DNA of 50,348 bases from Candidatus Eiseniibacteriota bacterium. Lineage in GTDB: Bacteria > Eisenbacteria > RBG-16-71-46 > CAIMUX01 > VGJL01. The stretch lies in the NCBI GenBank assembly GCA_041946735.1, contig JBHGAY010000034.1, positions 1-50,348 on the forward strand, read 5' to 3'. The notes under the pieces are model-generated. The model was given only the letters and a program-made list of their open reading frames with translations, searched no databases and was not told the DNA's origin. Below are positions 1,321 to 27,220 of this stretch, in pieces (positions within the stretch are counted from its first letter, which is position 1; each line of letters opens with the position of its first letter). Both the position numbers and the translations under genes were made by a program.

Positions 1321-4300
1321 ATGCGCTCTGTCCGGCTTCTTATCGCATTGGGGTCAGTGGTACTCGCCTGTCCCCGGGCTGCCGCTACAGACTACCCGAA
1401 CGTCTTTGACTTTCACCTCGCGGCTGACATCACAGACGTGACTATCACGCCCGACGGTCAGTATGATCGAATCTCTATCACCGATGGCCACCCGGACAAC
1501 ACCGAGGGACATATTGGACAACCGCAGCTCCCGATTCGCAATGCATTCTTCCTCTTGCCACCAGGGAAACGGATAGTCAGCGTCGATCTTCAAACAGAAC
1601 TTGTCACTACCATTCCTGGTGAATTCCAGCCGCTGCCGGTCCTTCCTCCCGATGTTCACGGCGACCCGCCCCTCGACGTCCCTTGGGACCTCTCCGGCAA
1701 CTACCCCGAGAAAGCCCTATACAGCGTCTCGTCTGGCGATTCCCGCGACTACTATTTGCTGAAAATCAGCTACTACCCCCTCTCCTATGAAGGCTCAACA
1801 AGACGGCTCGCCCTGAATGCGGTGCAACGGCTCGCTATCGTGCTCCAAGACCGGTCTCCCACCGAGGAGACGGCCCACATTCAAAGAGCCACGATGAGGG
1901 ATGGGCCGTTTGCCGAGCACCGTCAGTGGATCCGCAGTACCGTCCACAATCCTCTCGACGTCGATCGGTTCTATCCCCGTCATTCAGATCATGCCGACCA
2001 TGATCCGTCCCATGACAAGAATCACGCGCGCGTTTCCTCTGAAGAGGCGCCCTATGGCAGCTTCATCTCGGACCTACCCTCGGCTGAGGGGTTAGGGCCT
2101 TCCCTAGTCATCGTCACTAACAACGTCGACGAGAGCGGCAATGGTGTCGGGCAAATGACGGAGCACTTTGGTAACTACGCTGCTGCCTTGACATCGTACG
2201 GCATAGTCACCACCGTTCGGACAGTTGACTGGATTGAGAGGCAAGAGCCGTATCAGGGGTTCGACCGTGCCGATGCCATTCGGCGATTCTTGAGAGACTG
2301 CTATGTGAAATGGGGAACTTCGTACGTCATACTGGGCGGCGACGAGAGCGCCGTGCCTACACGGAGGATCGGGCCAGCCATTGTCGAAGACGCCCAGTGG
2401 TTGAACCGGGCGGATCCGACAAGCGACTTCTGGTATACGCGCTTGGGCACTTATGTCGACTCGCCGGAAAGCTGGAACGTAGACGGTGATGCCTGGATCG
2501 GTGAGTATCTCTCGGACTTCGGCGACTATACCGGTCTGAGCAGTAGTAGCATATTCGTGGGACGACTCCCTGCACGAAACGCTGATGAGGCACGCGCAAT
2601 GACGACAAAGCTGTGGCGGTATCGCCTCATGCCACCCTACTCGAATCAACGTGCCGATGACTCCTTCTACTCTTCGGGCATTGTTGTCGCTGGCCCCACC
2701 AACAGCTCCTCCCCGGACAATGAGGACTGCGGCGTATTTGTCGCGGAAGAGTTCTTCGCTGAGCCGCTACACAGGCAGTTCGGCTGGACCGTCTCGCGTA
2801 TGTACCCGGACTTCCCGTCCGTCACATGCCCGGGCGGCGACTTCTGTCTCGGTCGCCTCGCTGCCTATATCATTGAAAATGCCCCATCCGATCCCCGATG
2901 GGTCGGAACCTCCCTTCGAGATGCGCTCGACGGAGCACAGCGCCACTTCGTCTTCCACATGGAACATTCCGATACGGACAGGTGGGGACACCCCACTGCA
3001 TTTGGCGCCTTCCCGAATCGGGACTGCCCACGCGCCTGCAAACCCGAGTGCGACGAGCGACTAGCATCACTAGTGACCGGAACGGAACATCTGGACGAGA
3101 ATCAGGTGCTCTCTCTCCGCAACGCACCCCAAGGAGCGGAGGCGCGCTTCTTTATAGCGATGAGCTTAGGATCCTACACCAACGCCTTTGAGACAAATGC
3201 AATTGGAGAGGCTTTCCTTCGGGCCCCTAACGGGGGTGCTGTGGCATACGTAGGTAATACGGAGAGCTATTACAATCTGATCTATCGTCCTCGGGCAGTC
3301 GGAGTAGCCGCGGTGGATATGTTCGATCCAATCTCCGGCTGCAGTGTAGGAGGGGCGCTAGCCCACGCGCTGGATGAGATCTATCCCGATGGGATTCTTG
3401 AGATCAAGGAGGCCAGTGGTTTGCCCTTGCTCGGGGACCCGTCACTGCAGGCATGGCGGGGCGCACCACGCGACGCTCTTCTCGCCGTCACACCGAACCA
3501 GATCACATCCCTTGGCGTCACAAACCTAACCGTCACCGCAAGTGAGTCCGGGAGCGCCGTCGACAACGCTCTGGTCTGTGTGCGACAGAGCGATAAGGTC
3601 TATGCTACCAGGATGACCAACGCCGCTGGTCAGGCCATGTTCCCGGGGCTCTTGATTCAAAGCGTGGACTCCTTGATCGTGACCCTAATAGCGCCGGGCT
3701 TTGCCCCCAAGCGGCTGGCTGTTCCAATCTCGGTCAGTGCGCCCTTTGTTGCCTACGTTCGTCATGACCTCGATGACTGCTGCCAGGGGGGCGACTGCGA
3801 CAATGCGACCGAGGCCGCGGAAACTCTGACAGCGACTGTGACACTCGGGAATCTCGGAAGTACCACGGCCCAATCCGGATCAGCCCTCCTTCGCGCGACC
3901 CCATCCTTTCATTGCGATCTTCTGATTAACGGCCAATATCGACCAGAAGACATCCTGATAGGCGCGAAGAGCGCCCATCCGCCAGCCGCCGGAGAGTCAT
4001 TCGACCTTCCCTTGACTAAGGACGGCATCCGCTCTGAAGGGCCGCCTGTGGCCTTTGGCACCGGTCGTGACACTTTCAAAGTCTGGCGAGATAACTCATC
4101 GGGGAGCTACGTGGTTGCAGCGGTCTCCTCTTCGCAGTCCGCCGACTCTGTGTTCACTGGCGTTCTTAAGGGCCAGGCAGCCTTCTCAAGCGTCTCGATG
4201 ACCGGTGAGGCTAATGACGCCTACTTCTGGAGCGGCGACTCCATTTGGTTCCAGTTTCATGGAGACCAAACAAGCGATCAGATCACGTTTAAGGCCGAAG

Positions 4301-10281: not shown

Positions 10282-12171
10282 TCACCAATTGGAATCCCTT
10301 CTCCACCTCCATGAGTCAACCCAGCCGCCGGGCATGCCTACTCGCGGCCGGCGGACCACCCGCTTCTCCACTCGCTTCTCCTGTCCCTCGGACTCCGGCG
10401 GCGCCGGGGCCACCCTCCGCTTGAGCGAGCCCCAATGCGGCCGGAACAGGTACAGGGCCGCCAGGGCGTACACGCGGCAGTCGAGGGCCTCGTTGCGCGG
10501 CCGGGTCTTCACCCACTCCCGCTTCGGAAAGCCCCGGTGGTAGCGGGTCATGATCTTCTCCGCCGTCAGCTGCGCGAAGTACTCCGCCTCGTACTGGGGC
10601 TTCACCGGGAAGTGGCAGAAGCCGGGGCCACGCTCCTGGATCCGGAGCCGCGAGTAGATCAAAGCCTTCGCTTCGTCCACACCGACGATGAAGAGCTGCA
10701 CGGGGCGGCGGTTTCGACCACTTCGCTTCGGCAGAGGAGCGGACACGATCGGCCTCCCGGCGCCCGCCGCCCCCCGAATCGCGAAGATCCGCCTCGCGCT
10801 CCTGCCGCGGCAGAACTCGTAGACGGCCTGGGTGTGGTGACCGCCCGAGTCGATGCACGCGGCAGCAACCCGCAGCTTCGACCCGTTCTCGTGCTGGTAG
10901 CTCTGCTCGAGCTCCGCGGCCAGGTCGTCCCAGAGGTCCTGGCGCCCGGGGTCGCCCCAGAGGACCTTGTAGTCGACTCCCCAGCTCTCCTCCCCCGGGC
11001 CCCAGCCCACGATCTCCATCTCGATCCGGTCGTCCTGGATGTCGATGCCGGCCGTGAGGACAACGGCGTCCGCGGGGACCTCCGCGGCGTAGGTCTCGCG
11101 CCTGCCGAAGAGGGAGCCGTCGTCGAGCGTCTCGCCGTGTTCCTCCCAGGTCTCGGCCAGGACGGTGTTCATCCAGGTTTTTACGAGTTCATCGCCAGCG
11201 TGCTTGGCCTTGAGGAAGTCCGTTGCGGCATCGGCCCACGAGTACCAGCCCACCGGGCTGTAGAGCGAGGAGAGGTGGTAGCCTCGAAGACCCCGCTTGC
11301 CCTCCGCGGTTGGCACCCACCGGCCCTGCTCGAGCATGCGGGTCTTCTGGTGCTCGGGGATCTCACCCGTGCAGCCCTCGCAGACCATCTGGGCCTTCTC
11401 GGGCTCGCCGGCGGGCCAGCAGATCTGCGCCCAGCGAATCGGCTGGTAGAGGCCGCAATGGGGACACGGCACGTGGTAGTACCGCTGGTCCGTCTGCTCG
11501 AAGGCCGCCTCGATCCGGGAGAGACCCTTGACGGTCGGCGTCGACACCAGAAACACCTTCCGGTTCGCGGAGAACGTCGAGGTCCTCTTCCGTGCCAGCT
11601 CGACCGGATCCCCTTCGCCGTCGACATCGAACGGGTAGCCGTCGATCTCGTCCAAGAACAGGTACCGCGCCGGCATGGAGCGCAAGCCTACGGCGCTGTT
11701 CGCTCCCGTGAGGATCAGGATCCCGCCGGGAAACTCCTTCGCCAGGATCGTGTTGCCGCTGTCCCGGCTGCGGGGCTCCTCCACCCTCTCCCGCAGCGGC
11801 GGGCAGGCTTCGATCATCGGGGCGATGCGCTGACGCGAGACGCGCTTGGCCATCTCCACCGTGGGCTGAACATAGAGCATCGGGCCGGGCGCGTGGTGGA
11901 TCACGAAACCGAGGAAGTTGTTCCCGCACTCCGTGGCTCCGACCTGAGCTCCTTTCATGAAGACCACCATCTCGGTGTCGGACGATGGCGAGAGCGCATC
12001 CATGATTTCCCGCAAGTACGGCGTGCGCTCGGTCCTCCACGGGCCGGGCTCCGCGGTCGCACGACCCGACAGCACGCGGTACTGCTCCGCCCATTCGCTG
12101 ATCGTCAGTTCCGGCTCGGGCTCCAGGCCCGCCGCCCACGCCTCGGCACAGAGGCTCCGGAAATCACTCAT
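10282..12171 (-). CDS. phage terminase large subunit, lambda GpA family
   Basis: TISEWAEQYR, RTPYLREIMD, KGAQVGATE Walker A variant, LFLDEIDGY Walker B, VSTPT, CPHC..CEGC, GIDIQDDR nuclease, IDSGG, RNEALDC. Confidence 0.97.
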   Translation of the reverse strand: MSDFRSLCAEAWAAGLEPEPELTISEWAEQYRVLSGRATAEPGPWRTERTPYLREIMDALSPSSDTEMVVFMKGAQVGATECGNNFLGFVIHHAPGPMLYVQPTVEMAKRVSRQRIAPMIEACPPLRERVEEPRSRDSGNTILAKEFPGGILILTGANSAVGLRSMPARYLFLDEIDGYPFDVDGEGDPVELARKRTSTFSANRKVFLVSTPTVKGLSRIEAAFEQTDQRYYHVPCPHCGLYQPIRWAQICWPAGEPEKAQMVCEGCTGEIPEHQKTRMLEQGRWVPTAEGKRGLRGYHLSSLYSPVGWYSWADAATDFLKAKHAGDELVKTWMNTVLAETWEEHGETLDDGSLFGRRETYAAEVPADAVVLTAGIDIQDDRIEMEIVGWGPGEESWGVDYKVLWGDPGRQDLWDDLAAELEQSYQHENGSKLRVAAACIDSGGHHTQAVYEFCRGRSARRIFAIRGAAGAGRPIVSAPLPKRSGRNRRPVQLFIVGVDEAKALIYSRLRIQERGPGFCHFPVKPQYEAEYFAQLTAEKIMTRYHRGFPKREWVKTRPRNEALDCRVYALAALYLFRPHWGSLKRRVAPAPPESEGQEKRVEKRVVRRPRVGMPGGWVDSWRWRRDSNW

Positions 12172-14727: not shown

Positions 14728-16248
14728 CTACTCCTCCCGCCGCGCCGGCGTCCCGGTGAACGCCTCGAAGCGCTTCACGATCACGTCGCAGTAGGCCGGA
14801 TCGATCTCCATCAGGAATGCCCGCCTGCCTGTCTGCTGCGCCCCGATCAGCGTGCTGCCGCTTCCCCCGAAGAGGTCGAGCACGTTCTCGCCCGGACGGC
14901 TCGAGTAGGTCATCGCCCGCACCGCCAGCTCGACCGGCTTCTCGGTCAGGTGCACCATGCTCTGCGGATTGATCTTCTTCACGACCCAGACGTCGGTCGC
15001 GTTGTGGATATCGGGCTGGAAGTAGTGGGCGGCGCCCTCGCGCCACCCGTAGAACGCCCACTCGTGATTGCCCATGTAATCCTTCCGGGTCAGAACGGGA
15101 TGCTCCTTGACCCAGATGATCGACTGGCTGAAGTAGAGCCCGGTGGCCTTCAAGACCGGCGGGTAGTTGGCGCAGTTCGCGTAGCCGCCCCAGATGTAGA
15201 AGGCACGGCCGGGCAGCAATACCCGCGAGATGTTCCCGAACCACGCGAGGAGCATCTGGTCGAAGGCCTCGTCCGAAACGAAGTCGTTCTCGAGCGGGCG
15301 GTCCTTGGCGCGCATCTTCCCGGTCGGCTTCGCCTTCTCCGGGTGCCTCGCCAGGTCCAGGCTCTGGTGATGCTTGCTCCCACGGGTCTTCGACGCGGCC
15401 GCGGGGAACGACGACAGGCCGGCGGCGACCGCGTTGTTCGACCGCGGCTCCACACGGACGTTGTAGGGCGGGTCGGTGTTGACCAGGTGGATCCTCTCCC
15501 CCGCCAGCAAACGGTCCACGTCCTCGGGCTTTCCCGAGTCGCCGCAGAGGAGACGGTGGTCCCCGAGGATCCACAGGTCCCCGGGGCGGGTCACCGGATC
15601 ATCGGGAGGCTCGGGGACGAGGTCGGGATCGACCTCACCGATCTCGCCGTGGATCTCCGCTCCCAGGAAGGCCTCCAGCTCCTCGTTGGAGAAGCCGAGG
15701 ACAGGCAGCTCAAAGTCGTCGTCGAGGAGAGCGCGGAGCTCCTCGGTCAGAAGGGTCTTGTCCCAGCTCGCCCGCTCGGCCAGGCGGTTGTCGGCGATCA
15801 CGTAGGCACGCCGCTGGATGGGCGTGAGGTGGTCGAGGACGAGGACGGGGACCTGCTCGAGGCCGAGGCGCCGCGCCGCGAGGAGGCGGCCGTGGCCGGC
15901 GATGATCCCCGCTTCGGTGTCAACGAGGATCGGGTTGAGAAAACCGAATTCGACGATCGAGGCGGCGATCTCGTCCACTTGGTCCTCGGAGTGCATGCGG
16001 GGGTTCCGCTGGTAGGGGCGTAGGCGATCCAGAGGCCACAGGGCGATCCGTCGGGAGGACGGCCCGTGGAGTTGCCGCCGTGGGGCCACACGGTGGCCCG
16101 TGTCCGCGCCCTCGGCCGGGGGGGCGTCTGTGCTACCACCCGCCTCGGGATCCGCGGACACTGGCGCCCCGTCGCGCTCCTGGGCCGCGTCGTTCCAGGC
16201 CGAGGAGAGGAGGGGGGCCTTACGCTTCCGTGCCACTGTGCTACTCAT
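14728..16248 (-). CDS. ParB N-terminal domain fused to N6-adenine/N4-cytosine DNA methyltransferase
   Basis: LRPYQRNPR, SIVEFGFLNPIL, IIAGHGR, IADNRL (ParB/Srx); HRLLCGDS, TDPPY, HLTEKP, DLFGGSGST, EIDPAY (beta-class MTase). Confidence 0.93.
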   Translation of the reverse strand: MSSTVARKRKAPLLSSAWNDAAQERDGAPVSADPEAGGSTDAPPAEGADTGHRVAPRRQLHGPSSRRIALWPLDRLRPYQRNPRMHSEDQVDEIAASIVEFGFLNPILVDTEAGIIAGHGRLLAARRLGLEQVPVLVLDHLTPIQRRAYVIADNRLAERASWDKTLLTEELRALLDDDFELPVLGFSNEELEAFLGAEIHGEIGEVDPDLVPEPPDDPVTRPGDLWILGDHRLLCGDSGKPEDVDRLLAGERIHLVNTDPPYNVRVEPRSNNAVAAGLSSFPAAASKTRGSKHHQSLDLARHPEKAKPTGKMRAKDRPLENDFVSDEAFDQMLLAWFGNISRVLLPGRAFYIWGGYANCANYPPVLKATGLYFSQSIIWVKEHPVLTRKDYMGNHEWAFYGWREGAAHYFQPDIHNATDVWVVKKINPQSMVHLTEKPVELAVRAMTYSSRPGENVLDLFGGSGSTLIGAQQTGRRAFLMEIDPAYCDVIVKRFEAFTGTPARREE

Positions 16249-16512: not shown

Positions 16513-19224
16513 CTAGTCATCGCCGAGCCCTCGGACCCTCCAAAGAGCAACGCCGGATCTGTCCCCGAACCTTTCGAGGTGAATCCCGCCCTCGATCCTG
16601 TTCACGTGCGCAGTCAGGTACTTCCCGAGCACCCGGTGGTTGATCGTGTCTCCCTTGCCGGCGATCTCGAGCAGGATCTCCTGCAGGGCTTCCGCGCTCG
16701 GGTCTTGCACCACCCGATCAACCGGAGCCGCGGATTTCACGACCTGCGCCGCGGTTCGCGGCTCTGGTCCGAGATGGGCATACCAGGCTTGGAGCAGTGC
16801 CGCGAGCTTTTGGCGCACCGGATCGGCCTCCTCGATCTGCTTTCGTGTCTCGCAGGGATCGGCGAGCCCCGCCCAGACAAGTGCTGATCGGACCCAATCC
16901 GACCACTCGTCGAAGCCTGCCCAACGGGACAGATTCATGTCCGGCCGTCCAGCGACCTGGTATGCACGGAGGATGGTCAAGGCGCAGGCCACGTATCGCC
17001 CGCGCTCCGCCGGTACCTCCTTGTACAGGTCTCGTTTGAAACGGCGCTCTTCGGGATGCTCCATCTGGGGGTCGAGCTTGCAGACGAGCGCCCGGGTCGT
17101 GAGGTCGCCCTCGAGTGTCAAGTTGTTGCCCGTGGCGAGGAACATGACGGAGGTAGGAACCGACACCGTCTTGGATACCCCCAGCACGCGTCCCGTGACG
17201 ACCTCTTGCGTCAAGGCTTGAGAGATAGCCGCGCCCCCGAAGGGGCGGTCGATGTTGTCGTAACACACGATCGGATCCCCCGCCATGAGCAGGGCCAGCA
17301 GTCGCTTCTCCTCGTCGGCGGGCGAAGATGCTTGCGGCATGACCGGGCAGCTCCTGCCGTTGATGATCATGGCGACGATGTCCATCAGCGTGGTCTTGCC
17401 CGAACGCATCACAGGAGCGGTTGAGGCATGCATTGGGGCCGTCCGTAGAGAGCGGCGGACCAACGCGGTCACGATCGCCGAGATCGCCACGGAGAGGTCC
17501 GCCTCCGTGACGAAAGGAAACTCATCGAGTAACCCGCACAGAGCCTGAGCCGCTTCCCCGGCGTCGTCCCGGCTCGGTTTCTCGGCGATTCCAGAGAACT
17601 CGGTTCCACCCGGATCGAAGAGGAGCCCCGTCATGGCATCGTAGCCGGGCTGATCTAGGATCGATCCATCCTCCCGCAAAGTTGGCGCCTCGATAACTCC
17701 TACGAGGTGCGGTAGATTCCACTCGCCCGTTCTGGCAAGGTAGGTCTCCGCGATCTTCTTCGGGCAATCGGTGATCTTGACAGAGCTCTCGGCCGTTGCC
17801 CGCGCTGGGTAGGCGAGCCATCGGATGATCCGTGTGAGCCGATCGACCAGGTACGGAACATCCACCGGGTGGATGAGAAGAGCTCCTGCCCTTCGCTTGA
17901 GTCCGAGGAGAACGGCCGGGGCCTCGGTGCGCACAGTCCGCACGACCATTCCCCCGCGCTGATAGAGCGGCGCTCCCTGTCCCGAGATCAGCACCTCCTC
18001 GGCTCTGTCCACGATCTCGGGCAGTTTCCCCCCGCTCACGAGGATCGCCGGTCGCGGGTCGGCGTCCGGCGTGGACACATTGCTCTTGTCTTGGCCGTAG
18101 CCTCCGGTACATCGAGATATCGCATTCTCGATCGTGATTCGGCCATACGAGCGGCCGTCGGCCGAGTGAGGTTCATCCCACTTGCCCCGCATCAGCGCGG
18201 ATTGTCGGAAGAGCCGATCCATCCTCTCCGCATCGCCATCCGTCCAGAAAGCAAGGCGCGAGCAGAGGGCAGCATCCGCCTCGCTCTGCGATCGGTAGCC
18301 ACGCAAGTCCCCCTTGTCGAACAGACGCCGGAACCGCTCCCCGTTCTTCGCCAAGCGGGCCTTCTCGAGTAGCTCGTCATCGCCGAGGGCGACCGGCACT
18401 CTCACCGCCGTGGAGGTTCCGGCTCCGCTACTGCCGTTTGCCGTCGGCGCCTCGACTTCGACCCGACTGAGCAGGACCTCGAGGTCGACCCGGGGCACTT
18501 GGCCGTAGATCTCGCGAAGCTCGGCCCTCCGGTACGGGCGATCATCGGAGACGTTCGGCTTGACGTTCATCGTCCCCGGGCACCGCATGATGCGCGCGAA
18601 ATCGCCGAAGACCGCCCCATCGAGCTTCGCGCCGCAGCCCGGCGGAAACAGTGGCGCGATATACCGCTTGAGCCAGGCGCGGAGGCGCTCCTTCAGCACC
18701 TCAGGCGGACGGCCCTCCGTGGGGAGCGGTTCCACGAGGATGACGACCTGGCAGCCATTGCCCGTCTCTTCAGCCACGTAGGGGATCCGCTCCCGCCGTA
18801 GCCACTCCGCAATGCGGTGAGCGACCTGAACTGTCCGCTCGTGCTCTTCGTCGGTCGCCGGCCATTCATCGTCGGCGAAGCCTCCGGCGCGTATCGCGTC
18901 GACGTCGATCAGGAGGCCCGTCACGTGCTCGATGTCCGATGCCGATGCGCGCTTGCCAGCTCGCGGCGAGGCATTGAGCTTGTACCCGAGAGCATCCACA
19001 AGCGGTCGCGGGCGCGGGTTAATCCCGATGTAGACGTTCGCTTTGCCGTCGTGCGAGGAGATGGCCTGGCTCAGCTCTCCCGCGTCGTCGTAGTAGCCGA
19101 TCAACAGGTGGCGTCCGTGCGGTGCTCTGACCACGAGCTCGGTCGCGCCGAGATCGGGGTGCCTCAGACGCGAGCGGAGCGTGTGAATGCTGGTCTTAAG
19201 GTCGACGCCTTCCTTGTCCGCCAT
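16513..19224 (-). CDS. phage/plasmid primase-helicase (AEP/RepB-like primase, NrS-1-like helical domain, P-loop ATPase)
   Basis: IDVD, TGNGCQ, ARIMRCPGTMN primase motifs; SQSEADAALCSRLAFWT..MDRLFRQS..MRGKW; SGKTTL Walker A, VCYDN Walker B, ATGNN; GAGGAG SD before ATG 19224. Confidence 0.85.
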   Translation of the reverse strand: MADKEGVDLKTSIHTLRSRLRHPDLGATELVVRAPHGRHLLIGYYDDAGELSQAISSHDGKANVYIGINPRPRPLVDALGYKLNASPRAGKRASASDIEHVTGLLIDVDAIRAGGFADDEWPATDEEHERTVQVAHRIAEWLRRERIPYVAEETGNGCQVVILVEPLPTEGRPPEVLKERLRAWLKRYIAPLFPPGCGAKLDGAVFGDFARIMRCPGTMNVKPNVSDDRPYRRAELREIYGQVPRVDLEVLLSRVEVEAPTANGSSGAGTSTAVRVPVALGDDELLEKARLAKNGERFRRLFDKGDLRGYRSQSEADAALCSRLAFWTDGDAERMDRLFRQSALMRGKWDEPHSADGRSYGRITIENAISRCTGGYGQDKSNVSTPDADPRPAILVSGGKLPEIVDRAEEVLISGQGAPLYQRGGMVVRTVRTEAPAVLLGLKRRAGALLIHPVDVPYLVDRLTRIIRWLAYPARATAESSVKITDCPKKIAETYLARTGEWNLPHLVGVIEAPTLREDGSILDQPGYDAMTGLLFDPGGTEFSGIAEKPSRDDAGEAAQALCGLLDEFPFVTEADLSVAISAIVTALVRRSLRTAPMHASTAPVMRSGKTTLMDIVAMIINGRSCPVMPQASSPADEEKRLLALLMAGDPIVCYDNIDRPFGGAAISQALTQEVVTGRVLGVSKTVSVPTSVMFLATGNNLTLEGDLTTRALVCKLDPQMEHPEERRFKRDLYKEVPAERGRYVACALTILRAYQVAGRPDMNLSRWAGFDEWSDWVRSALVWAGLADPCETRKQIEEADPVRQKLAALLQAWYAHLGPEPRTAAQVVKSAAPVDRVVQDPSAEALQEILLEIAGKGDTINHRVLGKYLTAHVNRIEGGIHLERFGDRSGVALWRVRGLGDD

Positions 19225-19299
19225 CCCCACGCTCCTCTTCACAGGGACGGGGCGGCGTGGGATCGTTCCGGTTTGCGGGGCAAGGCCAGCGGATAAGGC

Positions 19300-19373
19300 G
19301 AAAGGGCGCCATGGTCCCCGTTCCCGGAGCTAACCACGACGCCCTCCGCTGTGCGGTCAGGCGACCGTCTGGT
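19300..19373 (-). promoter_or_regulatory. structured cis-regulatory RNA motif, copy A (primase leader)
   Basis: small CCGC-ACA-GCGG hairpin overlapping a 13-bp stem capped by a GGAA tetraloop hairpin; homologous to 23591-23674 with compensatory changes. Confidence 0.7.
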
Positions 19374-19482
19374 TGTCTTTTGGCCTGAGTCCTTCTAGAA
19401 GACGCCCAGGCGCTGAATCACAGAGTGCGGTCGATCACTGTCGAATGCAAGTTCGAAACCCAATAGGGCTGTACTCTCAGCG

Positions 19483-20421
19483 TCAAGATCCGGCCCCGTT
19501 CCCCCGTCTCCAAACCAGCCGCCAGTCATTGAACGCCATTTCGTCCCGTACCCACAACTCAGCAGGCAGGCCGTGCATGAACTGCACCCGGACAACGCCG
19601 TTCCTTACAGCCCGGAACATGTCGATGAGCCGGACCAGCCTCAGGTCTTGTTTACCACGCTCCACGGGAACCAGAGCGCGGTCCGGTCTCGTAGCGACGT
19701 CGTTCCAGACCTTCCAATGACCGTCCCACCGGGGCGGAGGGTCCAGGACGGGCCGCCTCCTGCGAATCACGACTTCGACCCGGCCGAAGGCATGGTCCGC
19801 AAGGCCCTGAAGGAAAGCGAGTTCCTGCTTGTCTAGCGGATCCTTCAACATCGTCTCGATCAGTTCGCTGTCGGTCTTGATGAGGTCGATGTTCCGAATC
19901 GGTCGAATACGGAGATACCGGAGTCGCTCACGAAGACCATCCGGAAGGTTCTTCGCCTTGGGGCTCAAGTTGGCGAGTTCCCTAACGCTGCTGCGCCTGA
20001 GCCAGGTACAGAAACGGCTGCAGAACCAGCCCCAGCCTGCGTCCGACTCGTACCAGGCGGGAGAGATCCGTAGCATCCCGACCCGTCGAAGGCTCGGCGT
20101 ACAGGTGAAGAAGGCAATGCAGGGCACATCTTCCTTCTTGATCTTCAGGGCAACCCGAGCTTCGAGCATCTGCTTCGACCAATGCTCTCGTACCGTGCCC
20201 GCCCGAATCTCCTCGGCCCAGGCCTGCTCGTCCTGCTCATCGGCGGCGATCAGCTGCTTGGGTCGTAACTTCTGGTGCTCAACTCCGCTACCCCGAGGAT
20301 TGCCAAAGCGCCAAACAGTGATGCGACTGCCCGCCGCTCGATCGATCTCCGCGACTGCGAGTCTGTGGTACTCATCGAACCGACGACTGGCGCTGTTCAG
20401 AATCGGAAGGGCGAAGAGCAT
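19483..20421 (-). CDS. hypothetical protein (312 aa), C-terminal region tentatively YezD/DUF2292-like
   Basis: GGGGAGG SD before ATG 20421; two similar beta-rich motifs FGRVEVVIRRRRP and NGVVRVQFMHGLP. Confidence 0.6.
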   Translation of the reverse strand: MLFALPILNSASRRFDEYHRLAVAEIDRAAGSRITVWRFGNPRGSGVEHQKLRPKQLIAADEQDEQAWAEEIRAGTVREHWSKQMLEARVALKIKKEDVPCIAFFTCTPSLRRVGMLRISPAWYESDAGWGWFCSRFCTWLRRSSVRELANLSPKAKNLPDGLRERLRYLRIRPIRNIDLIKTDSELIETMLKDPLDKQELAFLQGLADHAFGRVEVVIRRRRPVLDPPPRWDGHWKVWNDVATRPDRALVPVERGKQDLRLVRLIDMFRAVRNGVVRVQFMHGLPAELWVRDEMAFNDWRLVWRRGNGAGS

Positions 20422-20657
20422 CGCCACGACCTCCCCTTCGGCTTGGACGACTGGTTGCCCTTCCCTGGATCGCCGAGCTGTCCGCTGGCGTTCAGGATGG
20501 CCTCGAACGAGATCGCCTGCCCCGCGCCACGGATACCATCGAGCGGATCGGGGAGAGAACGGTCCCATCGGGTGACCCAGCCGGTGCCGCTAGCCTGGCT
20601 ACCCAACCCGAAGGTCACACCCCTCCACTCCTTGTAGCGGCTTCGCCTACGTCTCAT
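20397..20657 (-). CDS. small hypothetical protein (86 aa)
   Basis: AGGAAGGAG SD; overlaps the start of the next gene; no recognisable domain. Confidence 0.35.
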   Translation of the reverse strand: MRRRRSRYKEWRGVTFGLGSQASGTGWVTRWDRSLPDPLDGIRGAGQAISFEAILNASGQLGDPGKGNQSSKPKGRSWRCSSPFRF

Positions 20658-20768
20658 GGCCTTCTCCTTCCTGTTCGCCGTCTGCAGTGAGGCTGAGCGG
20701 CACGATAGCGCCGTGCATGTCCGGTGTCAGTAATTCTCTTCTCCGTTTCCGTTCTCTGTTGTGAACGC

Positions 20769-21248
20769 TCACGAGTTGTTAAGGTCAACGGTCAACGAAC
20801 CAAGGTCGCCATGTTGACAACTTGTGCATTTCTCCCGCTGCTCCTCCCAGTCCGTCAGGCCAGCGAGACTCCGCAGCCTCCGCTCCGTGATCGTTTCCCG
20901 TCCAACCTGCGGCTGCAAGAACAACAGCTCCTCCTGGATGTCCGGCGCCAGGTTCAAGAGGTCCATGATCTGGCTGATCCGCGCCCGGGTGACCCCGCCA
21001 AGCCTCGCCAGCTCGGCGTAATCTTTGATGGCCCCCCGCCGAATCAGGCTGTCGAAGCGGATGGCGAGCGCCATGAGACGCGCGACCCGCGGGATCCGCG
21101 CGGGACCGGGCGGGGCGGCCGGCTTCTTCCGTGCCCCCTCCCGCAGGCGTCGCCGACCCCGGTTCCCGGGCCGAATGTGGATCTCGAACTCGAGGGTGCG
21201 CCCGGCCGTCTCGGCCGCAGCCGCTCCCTCTCGCCCCCGATTCGCCAC
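20769..21248 (-). CDS. recombinase-associated HTH protein
   Basis: RVARLMALAIRF..YAELARLGGVTRARISQIMDLLNLAPDIQE, typical of genes following DUF2924/serine recombinase; overlaps the recombinase stop. Confidence 0.8.
   Translation of the reverse strand: MANRGREGAAAAETAGRTLEFEIHIRPGNRGRRRLREGARKKPAAPPGPARIPRVARLMALAIRFDSLIRRGAIKDYAELARLGGVTRARISQIMDLLNLAPDIQEELLFLQPQVGRETITERRLRSLAGLTDWEEQREKCTSCQHGDLGSLTVDLNNS
20770..20826. repeat. 13-bp imperfect inverted repeat with 31-bp spacer
   Basis: CACGAGTTGTTAA (20770-20782) and TTGACAACTTGTG (20814-20826), 11/13 complementary; GGTCAAC tandem in the spacer. Confidence 0.6.
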
Positions 21249-22825
21249 TACTCAACCTCCTGCGCCAAGACCTTGATCCCGCCCGGACGGAACGTGATCG
21301 CGACGCGGTGGCGCTCGCCGTCATAGCCGACCCGCTCGACCAGTAGCTCGACGACCCGGGCCTGCTCCTGCGGCGTCAGCGACTCCCACACGGGATCGAA
21401 GCTCTCCAGAGCCCGGGCGAGGTCTGCCTCGTCGACCCGGTCTCGTTCCACGGCCGCCTGGGACGCTCGGATCTCGGCCAGACGCGCCTCCGCGGCATCG
21501 GTTCGCGCCTGGAGGTCGACCAGCTGCGTCGCGACCGCCGCACGACGACCGTTCCCGGAGGCGGATCCGACCAGCCTCTTGATCTCCTCGGAGCACGTCC
21601 GCAGATCCGCCTCGATCTGCGGCCGCTCCCCGGCGAGCTTCTCCGCCCGCTCGTCCGCGTCCGCCCGGAGCCTTCTGAGAACCTCGGCCCGTAGGTCGAG
21701 ATCTGACCCGATCGCCCGGATCCGCTCCACCACGAACCGCTCGATCTCGGGGGCCGGGAGCGACTTCGAGGGGCAGGTCTCCCACCCCTGCTTCTGAGCG
21801 CGGCAGCAGGTGTAGTACCGGTATCGCCGCCCGCGCTTCGTCGTGTAGCAGTGGCTCATGGCCGACTCGCACGGCGTGCAGTAGAGGAGACCCCGGAGCA
21901 GCGCGCCGTACTTGTTCCGCGCCGCCCGTCCTCCGGAGCGGCCGTTCCTCTGAAGGAGCCTCTGCACACGCTCCCAGACCGCTTCCTCGACGATCGCCTC
22001 GTGCTCGCCCGGGTAGATCTCTCCCCGGTGGTTCACCTTGCCGACGTAGGTCACGTTCCGGAGCAGGCCGAAGACCGTAGCCTTGTCGAAGGGCCGGCCG
22101 ACGTGTTCAATGCCTTTCTTCGTCGTCCAGGTCTTGTTCCGCCAGCCCCGGCGGTTGATCTCCTTGACAACCTCGAGCAGGGATTCCTTCTCGAGGTACA
22201 AGTCGAAGATCGCGCGGACCCGCTCGGCCTCCTGCTTGTTCACGACCAGTCGGCGGAGCTGCCGGTCGCGTTCGTACCCCAAGAGCAGCATCCCACCGAT
22301 CCACTTCCCCTTCTTCCGCGCAGCGGACATCTTGTCCCGGGTCCGCTCCGAGATCATCTCTCGCTCGAACTGCGCGAAGCTGAGCAGGATGTTCATCGTG
22401 AGCCGTCCCATGGAGGAGCTCGTCGAGAATGCCTGGGTGACGGAGACGAAGGAGACCCTGCGCTCCTCAAGCGTCCCGATGATCCGGGCGAAGTCGAGCA
22501 GCGAGCGGCTCAAGCGGTCGACCTTGTAGACCACGACGCAGTCGACCCGGCCGGATTCGATGTCGGCCAGCAGGCGCTTCAGCGCCGGGCGGTCCATGTT
22601 GGCGCCCGTGTAGCCCCCGTCGTCGTACCGATCGGGCAGGCAGACCCAGCCCGCGCCCTTCTGGCTGGCGATGTAGGCCTCCGCGGCCTCGCGCTGGGCA
22701 TCGAGGGAGTTGAACTCCTGCTCGAGCCCCTCCTCGGTCGACTTCCGTGTGTAGATCGCGCAGCGGATCGGACCGGTCTCCGGCGGGGTTCCGTTGCCGT
22801 TGCCCGACTTCGTGGGGCGCTTCAC
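21248..22825 (-). CDS. large serine recombinase (resolvase, recombinase and Zn-ribbon domains)
   Basis: AIYTRKST catalytic Ser, YDDGGYTG, YKVDRLSR, FAQFERE, GEHEAIV, CTPC...YYTC...C. Confidence 0.96.
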   Translation of the reverse strand: MKRPTKSGNGNGTPPETGPIRCAIYTRKSTEEGLEQEFNSLDAQREAAEAYIASQKGAGWVCLPDRYDDGGYTGANMDRPALKRLLADIESGRVDCVVVYKVDRLSRSLLDFARIIGTLEERRVSFVSVTQAFSTSSSMGRLTMNILLSFAQFEREMISERTRDKMSAARKKGKWIGGMLLLGYERDRQLRRLVVNKQEAERVRAIFDLYLEKESLLEVVKEINRRGWRNKTWTTKKGIEHVGRPFDKATVFGLLRNVTYVGKVNHRGEIYPGEHEAIVEEAVWERVQRLLQRNGRSGGRAARNKYGALLRGLLYCTPCESAMSHCYTTKRGRRYRYYTCCRAQKQGWETCPSKSLPAPEIERFVVERIRAIGSDLDLRAEVLRRLRADADERAEKLAGERPQIEADLRTCSEEIKRLVGSASGNGRRAAVATQLVDLQARTDAAEARLAEIRASQAAVERDRVDEADLARALESFDPVWESLTPQEQARVVELLVERVGYDGERHRVAITFRPGGIKVLAQEVE

Positions 22826-23295
22826 CGGTCACCGCCGTTCGGACGTAGGCCAAAGAAGTGGAACCCATTCCAGTGGGTGCCGGTGACGACCTTCGCGATC
22901 GCGGTCAGGGACCGGTAGACCGTTCCGTCGTGCTCGAATCCGCGATCCAGCACGGTCACCGAGATCATCGTCCCCCGGTACTCGCGGGTCAGCACGGTGC
23001 CGGGCATCGGGAGGCGCCGGTCCTGCGGGATCGCGAGCGTCCCCGTGACCGTCCGCGCCGCCGGCGCCAGGAGCCGCAGGTCGGCCTCGTTCGCAAGCTC
23101 GGCGGCCCGCCGCAGGGCCCGCTCCGACAGTCCGCCCTCGTCGTTCGCCTGCAGCCGCCAGGTGATCCGCTTCTGTAGGTAGACCTTGTGGCGAGACGTC
23201 GTCGGCTCACCGAAGACCTCCACGTACTTCTCTCGGAGCTCGGCGAGCGTCATGTCTTGCAGCTCTGCGACTTGCCTGGCGATGTGCGGCTTCAT
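22822..23295 (-). CDS. DUF2924 domain-containing protein
   Basis: LREKYVEVFGE, ITWRLQA, PGTVLTREYRG, SLTAIAKVVTGTHWNGFHFFGL; ATG 23295 with GGAGG SD; 4-bp overlap with the recombinase. Confidence 0.9.
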   Translation of the reverse strand: MKPHIARQVAELQDMTLAELREKYVEVFGEPTTSRHKVYLQKRITWRLQANDEGGLSERALRRAAELANEADLRLLAPAARTVTGTLAIPQDRRLPMPGTVLTREYRGTMISVTVLDRGFEHDGTVYRSLTAIAKVVTGTHWNGFHFFGLRPNGGDR

Positions 23296-23519
23296 GCTCC
23301 CGCCTCCGCGGGGTCTCCGTCCGTCAACCCCTCGTCCCATGGAGGTCTCGGGGTCCCGGAGACATCCAGTGGTTTGTCGAGAGTCGGTGGAGAAACAGGC
23401 GCCGAAACGGAAGTAGCGCTGCAGGCTCTCGCCCGCAAGTAGCCGGCGGCCAGGATGGCCGCTAACTCGGCCAGTCGCTGCCCGGGGGTCATCTCCGCCG
23501 GGTCGTCCAGGAAGTCCAT
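23292..23519 (-). CDS. small conserved hypothetical protein upstream of DUF2924
   Basis: MTPGQRLAELAAILAAGYLR motif typical at this position; GGAGG SD; ATGA overlap. Confidence 0.65.
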   Translation of the reverse strand: MDFLDDPAEMTPGQRLAELAAILAAGYLRARACSATSVSAPVSPPTLDKPLDVSGTPRPPWDEGLTDGDPAEAGA

Positions 23520-23590
23520 GCTTCCTCCGCATTGACCCGGTCCTACAGATGGGAGGCGTCGAGGGAGCTGCGGTCCGGCGAGGGGCAACA

Positions 23591-23674
23591 GAATAGGCGC
23601 TATGGTCCCGTTGCCTCCGTTTCCGGAGCAACACCCACAACGCCTTCCGCTTTGCGGCCGGGCCGCTGTCTGGT
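23591..23674 (-). promoter_or_regulatory. structured cis-regulatory RNA motif, copy B (recombinase operon leader)
   Basis: CCGC-AAA-GCGG hairpin plus long stem with a GAAA tetraloop hairpin; homologous to 19300-19373. Confidence 0.7.
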
Positions 23675-23715
23675 GATCTGTCTACGCCCGCGGTGCGTTC
23701 ACCGCGCCGACCCTG

Positions 23716-23744
23716 TTTCTACATCCGTTGCGGTCGGGTGTCAA
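23716..23744 (-). promoter_or_regulatory. putative sigma70 promoter for the recombinase operon
   Basis: minus strand TTGACA, 17 bp spacer, TAGAAA, upstream of motif copy B. Confidence 0.4.
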
Positions 23745-23792
23745 GGCGTCTCCCGCAGCCACAATCTCTGGACACGAGTCGGCTGCCTTCAA

Positions 23793-23821
23793 TGGACCCT
23801 TTGCAGCCGTCCCGCTATGAT
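23793..23821 (+). promoter_or_regulatory. putative sigma70 promoter for the 23885 gene
   Basis: TGGACC, 17 bp spacer, TATGAT. Confidence 0.3.
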
Positions 23822-23884
23822 CCTGCGCGTTCACTTCCCTTGCTGGCATTGCCTGTGGACAGCACTCACTCCGGAGGGATCCCT

Positions 23885-24385
23885 ATGCGCGTGCTTCTCT
23901 TGCTCCTAGTCTTCGCCCTGACAATCACCGACGCAAAGGAGGGACGCACACAGTACACGCCCGATGGTTTCAACGGCTACCCTTGGGGGACAAGTTTCCA
24001 GAGCATGGACTCTCTCACGCTAGGAACTCCTGAGGCTCCTTCAGAAAGCGGAGCCGCAGGGATACTCTGGTTCAAGTCCAGAATCAACGCAGTTGGAGAC
24101 TGCGCCGTCGACTCGGTGAAGATGTCCTTCCTGGACGGTGACCTCTCCTCGATCCTCGCGTCAGGGAGGGGGCCCGATCTTTTCCGCTGTCTATACGGCA
24201 TGATGACATCGACCTGGGGGAAGCCCGCGCGACCAAACGCAGACTCAGAGATGTACCGCTTTGAAACACCGCAGACCGAAGGATGGCTTATATACAGCCA
24301 CGAGAAGGGGCTAGTGGTCGTCACTCTACACGAGGCTACCGCTAGTGAGTTCAGGCGGTATGCAAAACGTCGTGCGGCCAGATAG
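23885..24385 (+). CDS. secreted hypothetical protein (166 aa)
   Basis: GGAGGG SD, signal peptide MRVLLLLLVFALTITDA, GFNGYPWGTS..WGKP pattern. Confidence 0.7.
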   Translation: MRVLLLLLVFALTITDAKEGRTQYTPDGFNGYPWGTSFQSMDSLTLGTPEAPSESGAAGILWFKSRINAVGDCAVDSVKMSFLDGDLSSILASGRGPDLFRCLYGMMTSTWGKPARPNADSEMYRFETPQTEGWLIYSHEKGLVVVTLHEATASEFRRYAKRRAAR

Positions 24386-25465: not shown

Positions 25466-26755
25466 CTAGCCCGACACTTTCTTCGCGATCAAGGCCGCAA
25501 TCTCTTCGGCGGTGACTTGACCAAGGGAGACGTACCCCATCGTCGGCTGGAGGCCATCGAGTTCTGTGTCATCCACTCGTACCGGTAGGATATACTCTCC
25601 GCCTTTCTCCTTGATGGCCCTCGCTTGCGCACTTCTACGCTCGTGGCTCGTCCATTCCCTGGCCGCATAGTCCTTCGAAATCAGGATCACGCAGTACCGC
25701 GACTTCTTGCGATACACTTCATCGAAGAACACTGCCAAGTCCCGTCCCCAGAGTTGTTCCGGAAAGAACGAGTCGAGAAACACCCTCAGCCCGGCATCCC
25801 TCGCGTGTCTTCCTATCGCTTCCGCCAAGTGTCTTTGAGGGCCAGCAAACGAGATAGCGACATCGTACTCAAACGCTTGCCCGCGACCACCGCGATCGGA
25901 CAACCGTGCCAGTTGACCAGGATCTGGTTCCGGCGCCACAGGCCCAGCCTCCTCCAAGAAGGAAAACCCGAATGGCAGTAGCAGTCTGTGACTTCGTAGA
26001 AGGAGTTCGAGGCCCGCCGAAAAACGCAAGGAGTGTCTATCGAAGCACTGATGAACGTAGCTCGTGTTTCTATCGTGGTACGATCTCCCCTCCTCGTACT
26101 CCACAAAACGCCACCTGCACGGCTCGAAATCGAACTCCGGACATTCTCCGAAGGAGGCAAAGGACCCCAAGAACTCGAGAGCTGACTCCATTTCTCTCGA
26201 CAGTGGGGGGTGGATAGGTCGATAGTGCATTATCCACCCCTTGCCGTCTCGTCCATCTATCCATGAGAGCACGAACCGGAAATAGGCGTCTTCGCTGGTC
26301 TTGAGTTGCTCCTTCTTCGCCGCGCTGTGTCCATCGCCTTGCGCTCTGACTGACCGGGATATGTGAGGCGCGGACGACCGGCCTAAGAAGAAGCCGAACC
26401 CTTCGGGATGTTCTATATGAATGCCACACTCCGCTAAACTGGAGTCAGCGTTCCGTAAGGACTCCCAGGCTCCGGCAAAGGATTCTGCGAATCGTGGCAG
26501 GTCGAACCACTCGTCTACTCGACGCACGTAACACTCAGGAGCCTGGAAGGGGCAATTGCTCCTTACGAATCCGAGCAGCACAAGGAAGTCAGTCATCTGG
26601 ATGCCCGCAGTTGACCAGCCACTCGGCCGAACATGGATTGAATACGAGTGACGATCCTTGGTGTACTGCAGCTTGACGAGCGAGACCGCAGCAGAGGTTA
26701 GGGTCGTCGTTCCAAGAACCTCGCTCCGTAGTGCAGAATGGAGGTCGTCATACAT
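25466..26755 (-). CDS. TIR domain-containing protein (C-terminal TIR_2, unknown N-terminal domain)
   Basis: YDVAISFAG, LRVFLD, LWGRDL, YCVILISKDY, WTSHE catalytic Glu, YILPVRVDD. Confidence 0.9.
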   Translation of the reverse strand: MYDDLHSALRSEVLGTTTLTSAAVSLVKLQYTKDRHSYSIHVRPSGWSTAGIQMTDFLVLLGFVRSNCPFQAPECYVRRVDEWFDLPRFAESFAGAWESLRNADSSLAECGIHIEHPEGFGFFLGRSSAPHISRSVRAQGDGHSAAKKEQLKTSEDAYFRFVLSWIDGRDGKGWIMHYRPIHPPLSREMESALEFLGSFASFGECPEFDFEPCRWRFVEYEEGRSYHDRNTSYVHQCFDRHSLRFSAGLELLLRSHRLLLPFGFSFLEEAGPVAPEPDPGQLARLSDRGGRGQAFEYDVAISFAGPQRHLAEAIGRHARDAGLRVFLDSFFPEQLWGRDLAVFFDEVYRKKSRYCVILISKDYAAREWTSHERRSAQARAIKEKGGEYILPVRVDDTELDGLQPTMGYVSLGQVTAEEIAALIAKKVSG

Positions 26756-27148: not shown

Positions 27149-27220
27149 CTCCCCGGGCAGGACTCGAACCTGCAACCTACCGGTTAACAGCCGGTTGCTC
27201 TACCATTGAGCTACCGAGGA
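27149..27220 (-). tRNA. tRNA-Asn (GTT), CCA not encoded
   Basis: TCCTCGG TA GCTC AATGGTA GAGC A ACCGG CTGTTAA CCGGT AGGTT GCAGG TTCGAGT CCTGC CCGGGGA G folds as a full cloverleaf. Confidence 0.97.

Follow-up and report, generated by a model that had tools for sequence, protein, structure and literature searches.

RAT antiterminator RNAs, which are bound by proteins of the BglG/SacY/LicT family, are short leader hairpins that overlap the 5' arm of a terminator, and read-through follows when the hairpin is stabilised. In lambda, the RNA signals nutL and nutR, used with the N protein, lie at the start of the early operons of the recombination and replication sides, and in HK022 the two cis-acting RNAs putL and putR lie near the early promoters and act on the polymerase, with no terminator overlap. 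Here we describe an RNA comparable with these systems, present twice in a prophage-like element of a Candidatus Eiseniibacteriota bacterium (assembly GCA_041946735.1, contig JBHGAY010000034.1; the whole stretch analysed, 50,348 nucleotides (nt), is called the window). Copy B stands in the leader of a recombinase operon and copy A, 4.3 kb on along the same (minus) strand, in that of a replication operon. An initial annotation of the window had proposed a duplicated RNA structure as the switch of a new antitermination regulon; its core idea stands with a corrected fold, and the RNA is a real and new leader switch, widespread in phages.

The conserved core is one interrupted hairpin of ~45 nt, in which an outer helix (P1) encloses a short inner hairpin (P2). 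As in RAT, this short imperfect leader hairpin overlaps the 5' arm of a more stable terminator-like stem, hereafter the long hairpin. Unlike RAT, with which it has no sequence or Rfam relation, the new core also drives start-codon sequestors and has a third partner in some members, and it sits in phage regulatory regions rather than in sugar operons. RAT/BglG-type antitermination is the subject of PMC5393181 and PMC12591593. Pfam scans of 15 window proteins and of the homologues' neighbours found no CAT_RBD or PRD domain. The likeness to lambda nut lies in two RNA copies per phage at the heads of the recombination and replication operons, with a small element-encoded protein as suspected partner. 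The boxA consensus, which we take to be CGCTCTTTA, matches the window 79 times at up to two mismatches, against 104 expected, and only one match, with two mismatches, lies near the copies (19300-19308). P2 has a triloop, unlike lambda boxB with its 5-nt GNRA-like loop; the new core competes with an adjacent terminator-like stem, whereas nut acts processively; and the candidate protein, named here KHGLPF after one of its motifs, is near-neutral and predicted to be folded, unlike N, an arginine-rich peptide. HK022 put likewise comes as two covarying cis-acting copies per phage near early promoters, but in the new RNA one structure precludes the other, and some of the read-outs act on translation. 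With ON-type riboswitches it shares a sensor helix that contributes a strand to a terminator or sequestor, as well as transcriptional and translational platforms; it differs in being a simple interrupted hairpin that is strictly associated with a protein family and with mobile elements. Judged by these features and by the lack of an Rfam match, the switch appears to belong to none of the RAT, nut or put systems.

Both copies lie on the minus strand where they had been placed initially, at 19373-19300 (copy A) and 23674-23591 (copy B), and the claim of a structured RNA on that strand held, since its fold is much more stable than those of shuffles (z -3.45 and -3.12), unlike that of the plus strand (z -0.72 and -0.47). 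The pattern ACCAGAC-N10-CCGCANAGCGG has exactly two matches in the window, where 0.34 would be expected even at up to three mismatches; in the whole 4.9-Mb assembly, at up to two mismatches, only three unrelated matches occur besides both copies. A covariance model built from homologues (R1), run on the window with filters off, assigned 71.4 bits to copy B (E 4.9e-19) and 55.5 bits to copy A (E 2.8e-14), the next-best match reaching 11 bits. Copies A and B are the sole two in the window and in the genome. Their parts, all on the minus strand, are as follows.

23716..23744, minus strand: putative sigma-70-type promoter of the copy B leader (sequence reading)
23689..23706, minus strand: small 5' hairpin CGCGGU-GAAC..-ACCGCG, between promoter and core (sequence reading)
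23632..23675, minus strand: copy B core (R1 match 23681-23630, all 16 model pairs formed)
23675-23661, minus strand: copy B P1 5' strand, CACC-AG-ACAGC-G-GCC
23657-23647, minus strand: copy B P2 hairpin, CCGC-AAA-GCGG
23644-23632, minus strand: copy B P1 3' strand, called strand b, GGC-GUUGU-G-GGUG
23595..23650, minus strand: copy B long hairpin, strand b paired with strand c (RNAfold)
23517..23556, minus strand: putative Shine-Dalgarno (SD)-sequestering hairpin behind copy B (sequence reading and fold)
19331..19374, minus strand: copy A core (R1 match 19380-19329, two non-standard pairs)
19374-19360, minus strand: copy A P1 5' strand, AACC-AG-ACGGU-C-GCC
19356-19346, minus strand: copy A P2, CCGC-ACA-GCGG
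19343-19331, minus strand: copy A P1 3' strand, GGC-GUCGU-G-GUUA
19298..19349, minus strand: copy A long hairpin, b paired with c (RNAfold minimum free energy -44.5 kcal/mol, z -3.45)
19223..19264, minus strand: putative hairpin GAUCCCACGC...GCGUGGGGAU behind copy A (sequence reading and fold)

The corrected fold concerns P1. What had been described as a spacer of exactly 10 nt is the 5' strand of a helix: the ACCAGAC segment and this supposed spacer pair with the GUNGUGGGUG strand and enclose the P2 hairpin CCGC-ANA-GCGG. The consensus reads 5' CACC-AG-ACAAC-A-GAC, junction, CCGC-ANA-GCGG, junction, 3' GUC-GUUGU-G-GGUG, so that an AG/G internal loop and a one-base bulge break up P1. In nearly all members, P2 has a stem of 4 bp and a loop of 3 nt (ANA, GAA or GGA).

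P1 and P2 are both supported by covariation. In an alignment of 57 unique cores (A4), standard pairs fill 93.0% of cells, a share that drops to 25-60% in controls with slid partners, and the covariation score is 0.236 against 0.146 in shuffles (0/500 reach it); A-U is replaced by G-C in 7 sequences at one pair and in 12 at another. The reading of A4 is weakened by its construction, P2 having been fixed by the search pattern and mostly sequences with a pairable inner 5 bp of P1 (P1a) having been kept, and more generally by shuffle and permutation controls that ignore relatedness. Free of both A4 biases are 39 viral loci fetched through the neighbouring protein alone (A8). R1 matches all 39 (E 1e-16 to 3e-6); 87.9% of cells are paired, 9 of the 16 pairs change on both sides and none of 500 shuffles does as well. 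Here P2 itself covaries, CCGC/GCGG becoming CCAC/GUGG in nine sequences and also CUGC/GCAG and GCUC/GAGC. Among 28 loci from the window's phylum aligned to the model (A11), 93.8% of cells are paired and 10 pairs show double changes. The weakest part is the middle helix (GAC/GUC), one pair of which is unpaired in about half of the sequences. The initial annotation had suggested a covariance model and a genome search; with a model built from homologues, the motif was found in many genomes, and P1 and P2 covary. A locus of the window's phylum (L584:1501-1591; 26 bits against R1) carries an insertion of ~40 nt in the P2 loop, which gives an extended hairpin.

The copies belong to a large family of leader RNAs of proviruses and phage contigs across many bacterial phyla. 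An exact-pattern scan of IMG/VR returned 42 loci, 16 of them clear homologues, and a scan keyed on P2 and the GUGG part returned 104, of which 31 were true by eye; with one genome per species the latter gave at least 119 loci. Two further viral pattern scans gave mostly noise, with only a few P2 variants among the matches listed. True copies among the matches listed came from Desulfobacterium, Desulfosarcina widdelii, Ca. Eisenbacteria, Acidobacteriota, Planctomycetota, Nitrospira, Anaerolinea, Chloroflexia and others, and the homologue phyla, drawn from IMG/VR contigs and genomes, include Desulfobacterota, Acidobacteriota, Planctomycetota, Nitrospirota, Chloroflexota and Ca. Eisenbacteria. 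R1 found the motif in 23/151 genomes sampled from the window's phylum and in 16/150 of a second phylum sample without its seed (17/151 with it), corresponding to about one genome in 7 and one in 9. The absence of a named Rfam family, as suspected initially, was borne out: Rfam 15 yielded only a tRNA over the whole window at the gathering threshold, two unrelated weak matches elsewhere for region 19000-24000 at E<=10, and a tRNA and one chance match for 18 homologue loci at E<=1. Full-text searches of openly accessible papers turned up no description of the motif or of the KHGLPF family. The copy B core is identical over ~50 nt to copies in a Ca. Eisenbacteria metagenome-assembled genome (L159) and in an IMG/VR contig (L031/L107); in L159 the small open reading frame (ORF) and DUF2924 share one frame (a 198-amino-acid (aa) ORF), whereas they lie in different frames in the window. 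L050, L057, L058, L060 and ~30 more IMG/VR loci share another conserved stretch (..CCGCAGAGCGGATTGCGGGCGTGGTG..), a chance match to the pattern that was judged coding by eye from its flanks.

Two gene contexts follow the motif. Recombinase-type leaders precede a small ORF, a DUF2924 gene and a large serine recombinase, an order found behind copy B and also in L056, L061, L083, L086, L106, L126, L166, L186 and L225. Sigma-type leaders precede the gene of a phage sigma-70-like protein (phrog_1740), behind which lie a PD-(D/E)XK/DUF3799 nuclease, AAA_24 and DUF669; one sigma-type copy (L161) is present in the complete genome of Desulfosarcina widdelii PP31. In the window, copy A heads a primase-polymerase in place of the sigma gene, and a single query found no homologue of the phage sigma protein in the window's genome. 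The proposed position in the leaders of both the recombinase and the replication operon is thus matched elsewhere: paired copies on one strand, 4-5 kb apart, recur in G101, G008, G131, G115, G145 and G000, and in G101 a recombinase-type copy comes first, followed by a sigma-type one.

Strand b, made up of the P2 3' arm and the P1 3' strand (GCGGAGG..GUNGUGGGUG), doubles as the 5' arm of the long hairpin. In copy B this arm pairs with CCAUAGCGCCU (23605-23595), so that the long hairpin excludes P1/P2 and vice versa, and the tail AUUCUGUUG follows (23594-23586); in copy A the 3' arm is ACCAUGGCGCCC (19315-19304), followed by UUUCGCCUU (19303-19295). The competition between a small hairpin and a long terminator-like stem had been recognised initially, while the competing structures were incompletely drawn because P1, in which ACCAGAC and the spacer pair with GUNGUGGG, had been missed. 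The two compensatory differences between the long stems (G-C/A-U at the base, C-G/U-A inside) are present as described, and the UCCG-GNRA-CGG cap exists in the window copies but not in homologues, whose long stems carry other hairpin caps. A long hairpin of about -30 to -40 kcal/mol (~-33) occurs in almost all leaders, against -15 to -22 (~-17) for the core. Within the 8 nt that follow it, 22/93 leaders have at least five U and 30/93 at least four; the tail is CCUCCGCUUUUUUUCUG in L071 and L206, and U-runs of 7-8 U occur in homologues such as L071, L140 and L168.

Since a MAFFT alignment of the long-stem region holds subtypes out of register, coevolution of the partners was assessed by partner-swap energies on the unbiased set rather than by RNAalifold. 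Native a:b duplexes (the two P1 strands) have -8.3 kcal/mol against -6.9 when swapped, and native b:c duplexes -27.9 against -24.5, with 0/2000 permutations reaching the native value in either case. The P2 change GCGG to GUGG is mirrored at the end of the c arm by CCGC to CCAC.

Strand b has further partners. Of 121 unique leaders, 18, most of them recombinase-type, have b paired instead with ..CCGCUCAUG or ..GCCCAUG, the AUG of which opens an ORF; the small ORF starts at this AUG, and the enclosed hairpin contains the SD sequence, although a few of the 18 could be due to chance. Translational control, initially mentioned as a fallback, is a regular second read-out in such members, where b pairs with the start-codon region. 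Sigma-type leaders contain a third partner, d, which is complementary to b, lies just 5' of an SD-sequestering hairpin and changes with b as follows.

b type GGGUG with d type CACCCAC: 8/13
b type GGGCG with d type GCCCAC: 18/22
b type GAGCG with d type CGCUCAC: 2/2

Counting 11-mer matches gave no discrimination for d and was replaced by this table and by duplex energies, which are -17.6 kcal/mol for native b:d and -14.9 for swapped pairs (0/2000 permutations). Element d is not clearly present in the window's copies.

The distances of 75 nt (copy A) and 71 nt (copy B) to the next ATG were confirmed; for copy B, however, this ATG (23519) opens a small ORF of 75 codons, the DUF2924 start being at 23295. 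In the putative SD hairpin behind copy B, CCUCC (23556-23552) would pair with GGAGG (23528-23524), close to the small-ORF ATG at 23519-23517, and the hairpin behind copy A would take in the AU of the start codon ATG 19224-19222. The putative promoter of the copy B leader consists of TTGACA (23744-23739), a 17-nt spacer and TAGAAA (23721-23716), and lies 40 nt 5' of the copy. The arrangement TTGAC(A/G)-N17-TAGAAA/TACAAC/TATAAA lies likewise upstream of the related copies L562, L566, L569 and L581, and a consensus promoter scanner made no call at the copy B site. The small 5' hairpin is kept in the window's subfamily, with the same sequence in L562, L566, L569, L581, L586 and L587. A second recombinase-type subfamily has an upstream block, CCGACNTTTCGAAC-N6-9-GGTA(A/T)GTA, 40-70 nt 5' of the motif (L570, L572, L573, L575-L577, L583, L590; also L061, L132, L193), which looks like a promoter with a palindromic (TTCGAA) operator.

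Set beside the observed family, with its covarying P1/P2 core, competing b partners, two read-outs, gene contexts and protein-RNA synteny, the model that we propose would work as follows. The P1/P2 core hairpin would form first during transcription, and strand b would then be captured by the far more stable downstream hairpin, either a terminator-like stem or, elsewhere, a stem that buries the SD sequence and start codon. Left alone, the RNA would adopt the long hairpin, the default OFF state; held together, P1/P2 would act as an antiterminator or anti-sequestor and the downstream operon would be transcribed or translated (ON). We infer this direction from the order of synthesis, in which the core comes first, and from the far greater stability of its competitor. 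In the window's own copies, termination would presumably take place at weak U-tracts. The copy B switch would guard the small ORF-DUF2924-serine recombinase operon and the copy A switch the primase-polymerase/replication operon, and both modules would answer to one signal because one switch heads each operon. An element-encoded protein would be the likeliest signal, the best candidate being the KHGLPF-domain protein at 19483-20568, just 5' of copy A, in which case the switch would form a feed-forward or positive-feedback commitment step. For the reading as a whole, a new family of cis-acting leader RNA switches in temperate-phage-like elements with the long hairpin OFF, held P1/P2 ON and an element protein as likeliest signal, we see the balance as roughly level.

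The case for this protein comes from synteny and co-occurrence. In sigma-type leaders, the ORF that ends 11-43 nt 5' of the motif encodes a protein of ~110 aa with the motifs FGRIE, EPVLDPPP and KHGLPF. In the window's 361-aa protein, a KHGLPF domain (FGRVE..RPVLDPPPR..MHGLP) spans residues 234-344, and hhalign matched it at a probability of 95.2% (E 2.7e-8) to a 17-member family alignment from which the window was excluded (A5). This protein is also the best tblastn match of a KHGLPF family member in the window's own genome, and its gene ends 103 nt 5' of position 19380, where the R1 match to copy A begins. As the window's protein fits the pattern, the association of KHGLPF with the motif survives a change of N-terminal fusion and of downstream gene. 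The motif lies immediately downstream of the KHGLPF gene in all 39 phage loci fetched through the protein alone, which lends indirect support to the partner protein initially proposed, through its C-terminal domain. All 14 KHGLPF-positive genomes in the sample of the window's phylum (151 genomes) are motif-positive, the gene lying at most 250 nt upstream of a copy on the same strand in nine of them, and KHGLPF occurs in 0/128 motif-negative genomes; the second phylum sample gave 5/5 and 0/134, and KHGLPF is encoded in 5/5 motif-bearing virus records.

KHGLPF relatives form 2778 sequence clusters at E<=0.001 in a large protein database, all of them 'hypothetical', and a protein atlas holds them only as 'hypothetical' viral clusters. 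No Pfam or PHROG match was found, and the profile retrieved no PDB sequence at E<=1. The predicted model is confident (predicted local distance difference test 92.8) and runs alpha-beta-beta-beta, then alpha-beta-beta. The N-terminal 230 aa of the window's protein show no similarity to the ~345-aa proteins upstream of KHGLPF elsewhere. DUF2924 was considered as a relative of KHGLPF and rejected for lack of similarity. In sigma-type elements, a 340-640-aa protein is encoded upstream of the KHGLPF gene (L049:925-1953, L071:779-1810, L109:891-1934, L121:709-1929, L168:124-2046), with a weak to clear OmpR-type winged-helix (Trans_reg_C) C-terminus and in one case a QueC-like segment; this protein may also take part in regulating the module.

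A number of observations weigh against the proposed switch or its proposed effector. The outermost helix of copy A is degenerate, with 2/4 pairs in the R1 alignment; the U-tracts of the window copies (UUUCGCCUU in A, AUUCUGUUG in B) are short, and a terminator scanner made no call at either; and b:d pairing is not accounted for by a simple two-state model. No RNA sequencing run is listed for the region, which is represented by DNA metagenome contigs only. KHGLPF is undetectable in 9/23 motif-positive genomes of the first sample and 11/16 of the second, and a renewed search of five such genomes at E<=5 again found none; the term 'protein-responsive' in the initial annotation is thus not borne out. 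In two virus records the KHGLPF gene leads directly into the sigma gene, the motif being absent there. KHGLPF proteins are not basic (median isoelectric point 6.1), Foldseek found no PDB match to the model at E<=0.001 and no RNA-binding fold, and the best Z of a VIA-align search against 48,161 chains was 3.3. Synteny of KHGLPF and motif among related phages can be inherited rather than functional. We place the claim that the signal is an element-encoded protein at or slightly short of an even chance, and the specific proposal, in which KHGLPF would be a new kind of RNA-binding antiterminator that locks P1/P2 and switches on the excision and replication/sigma programmes at once, is tentative and rather doubtful.

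Absence of the candidate protein from many motif-bearing genomes would also fit a riboswitch, in which P1/P2 would serve as an aptamer and sense the host state through a small molecule or ion, a ligand that would stabilise P1 and so turn on the excision and replication genes. One core joined to two read-outs, a terminator-like stem and a start-codon sequestor, is typical of riboswitches, and the conserved unpaired bases (AG/G loop, bulge, GGA after P2) persist across phyla. However, the core is short and consists largely of helix, and the need for b to match two or three partners can account for much of its sequence conservation. The motif is confined to regulatory regions of mobile elements and, where one particular protein family is present, is strictly tied to it; the gene context suggests no ligand, and we consider a riboswitch unlikely. 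An attenuator independent of a specific factor, or dependent on a host factor, would instead respond to folding kinetics, polymerase pausing, temperature, a general host RNA-binding protein or ribosomes, the last either ending the upstream gene 11-43 nt 5' of the motif or loading on GGAGG-N5-GUG in b. The upstream ORF does stop at that distance in sigma-type leaders, GGAGG stands five bases before GUG in many b strands, and occurrence in very different phyla argues for a self-contained mechanism with no special host factor. Yet recombinase-type copies stand behind a promoter rather than an ORF, many of them have GGACAU in place of GGAGG, and ORFs that start at the GUG vary in length and sequence, which leaves such an attenuator distinctly unlikely.

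Autoregulation, in which DUF2924 or the small-ORF peptide would bind its own operon's leader, would suit the copies that directly precede small ORF-DUF2924-recombinase, which are the majority. DUF2924 co-occurs with the motif at least as well as KHGLPF does (both in 18 genomes, motif alone in 5, DUF2924 alone in 5; 18/23 each way), a further point against KHGLPF as effector, but this is expected simply because DUF2924 is a regulated gene behind the motif leader. With five DUF2924-positive genomes that lack the motif, with no likeness of DUF2924 to KHGLPF and with nothing that points to RNA binding by DUF2924, autoregulation appears very unlikely. By analogy with put, the core might instead render the polymerase resistant to terminators located deeper in the two operons. 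In favour of this are the presence of two copies in each element, just 3' of a promoter or heading an early operon, and the conserved, covarying hairpin. The core nevertheless overlaps its own terminator-like stem, the two being mutually exclusive, and start-codon control in other members is not explained by a modified polymerase, so that processive antitermination of this kind seems scarcely plausible. Other candidates were rejected: the segments ACCAGA..GUUGUGG, which we take to resemble a hairpin ribozyme, have no Rfam match and their CCAG/CUGG pairing is not conserved; a CsrA site (GGA) was dismissed by argument, as the motif is spread over distant phyla; and a DNA-level element was dismissed as the minus strand alone folds and G-U intermediates are frequent.

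The timing of excision and replication is little understood in temperate phages of environmental bacteria (Acidobacteriota, Planctomycetota, Desulfobacterota, Nitrospirota and others), and the leader switch sits at exactly these control points. It offers a testable model of lysis-lysogeny commitment outside the lambda paradigm and is a candidate new RNA family for Rfam. It may also provide a new RNA-protein pair, which could serve as an orthogonal regulatory part beside large serine recombinases. Were KHGLPF indeed the antiterminator, a wide group of temperate phages would possess an RNA-based commitment switch with a logic like that of lambda N/nut and unrelated parts.

The prophage-like element spans ~8.7 kb to 27.2 kb of the window and adjoins a tRNA gene. 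Along the minus strand, the order is TIR protein, copy B, small ORF, DUF2924, serine recombinase, 361-aa protein, copy A, primase-polymerase, ParB-methylase and terminase, with the following coordinates.

27149..27220, minus strand: tRNA gene (Rfam tRNA, 73.5 bits), the likely border of the integrated element
21248..23519, minus strand: operon behind copy B, comprising small ORF, DUF2924 protein and large serine recombinase
23519-23292, minus strand: small ORF, 75 codons
23295-22822, minus strand: DUF2924 protein
22825-21248, minus strand: large serine recombinase
19483..20568, minus strand: 361-aa protein with KHGLPF domain, residues 234-344 (hhalign)
16513..19224, minus strand: NrS-1-like primase-polymerase behind copy A (Pfam, PHROGs)
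14728-16248, minus strand: ParB-methylase, 3' of the primase-polymerase (Pfam, PHROGs)
10282-12171, minus strand: terminase large subunit, further downstream (Pfam, PHROGs)

The small-ORF stop overlaps the DUF2924 start as ATGA (23292-23295, minus strand), and the DUF2924 stop is overlapped by the recombinase start at 22825; these overlaps suggest a translationally coupled three-gene operon. Between the tRNA gene and the recombinase module, a 429-aa protein (25466-26755, minus strand) has a C-terminal TIR domain (Pfam TIR_2, E 1.6e-13) and may represent a defence gene at the edge of the element. Outside the element, positions 1321-7035 of the plus strand encode a 1904-aa protein, probably a secreted protease of the host, that combines a peptidase C25 domain with FG-GAP repeats and has a FlgD-Ig-like C-terminus.

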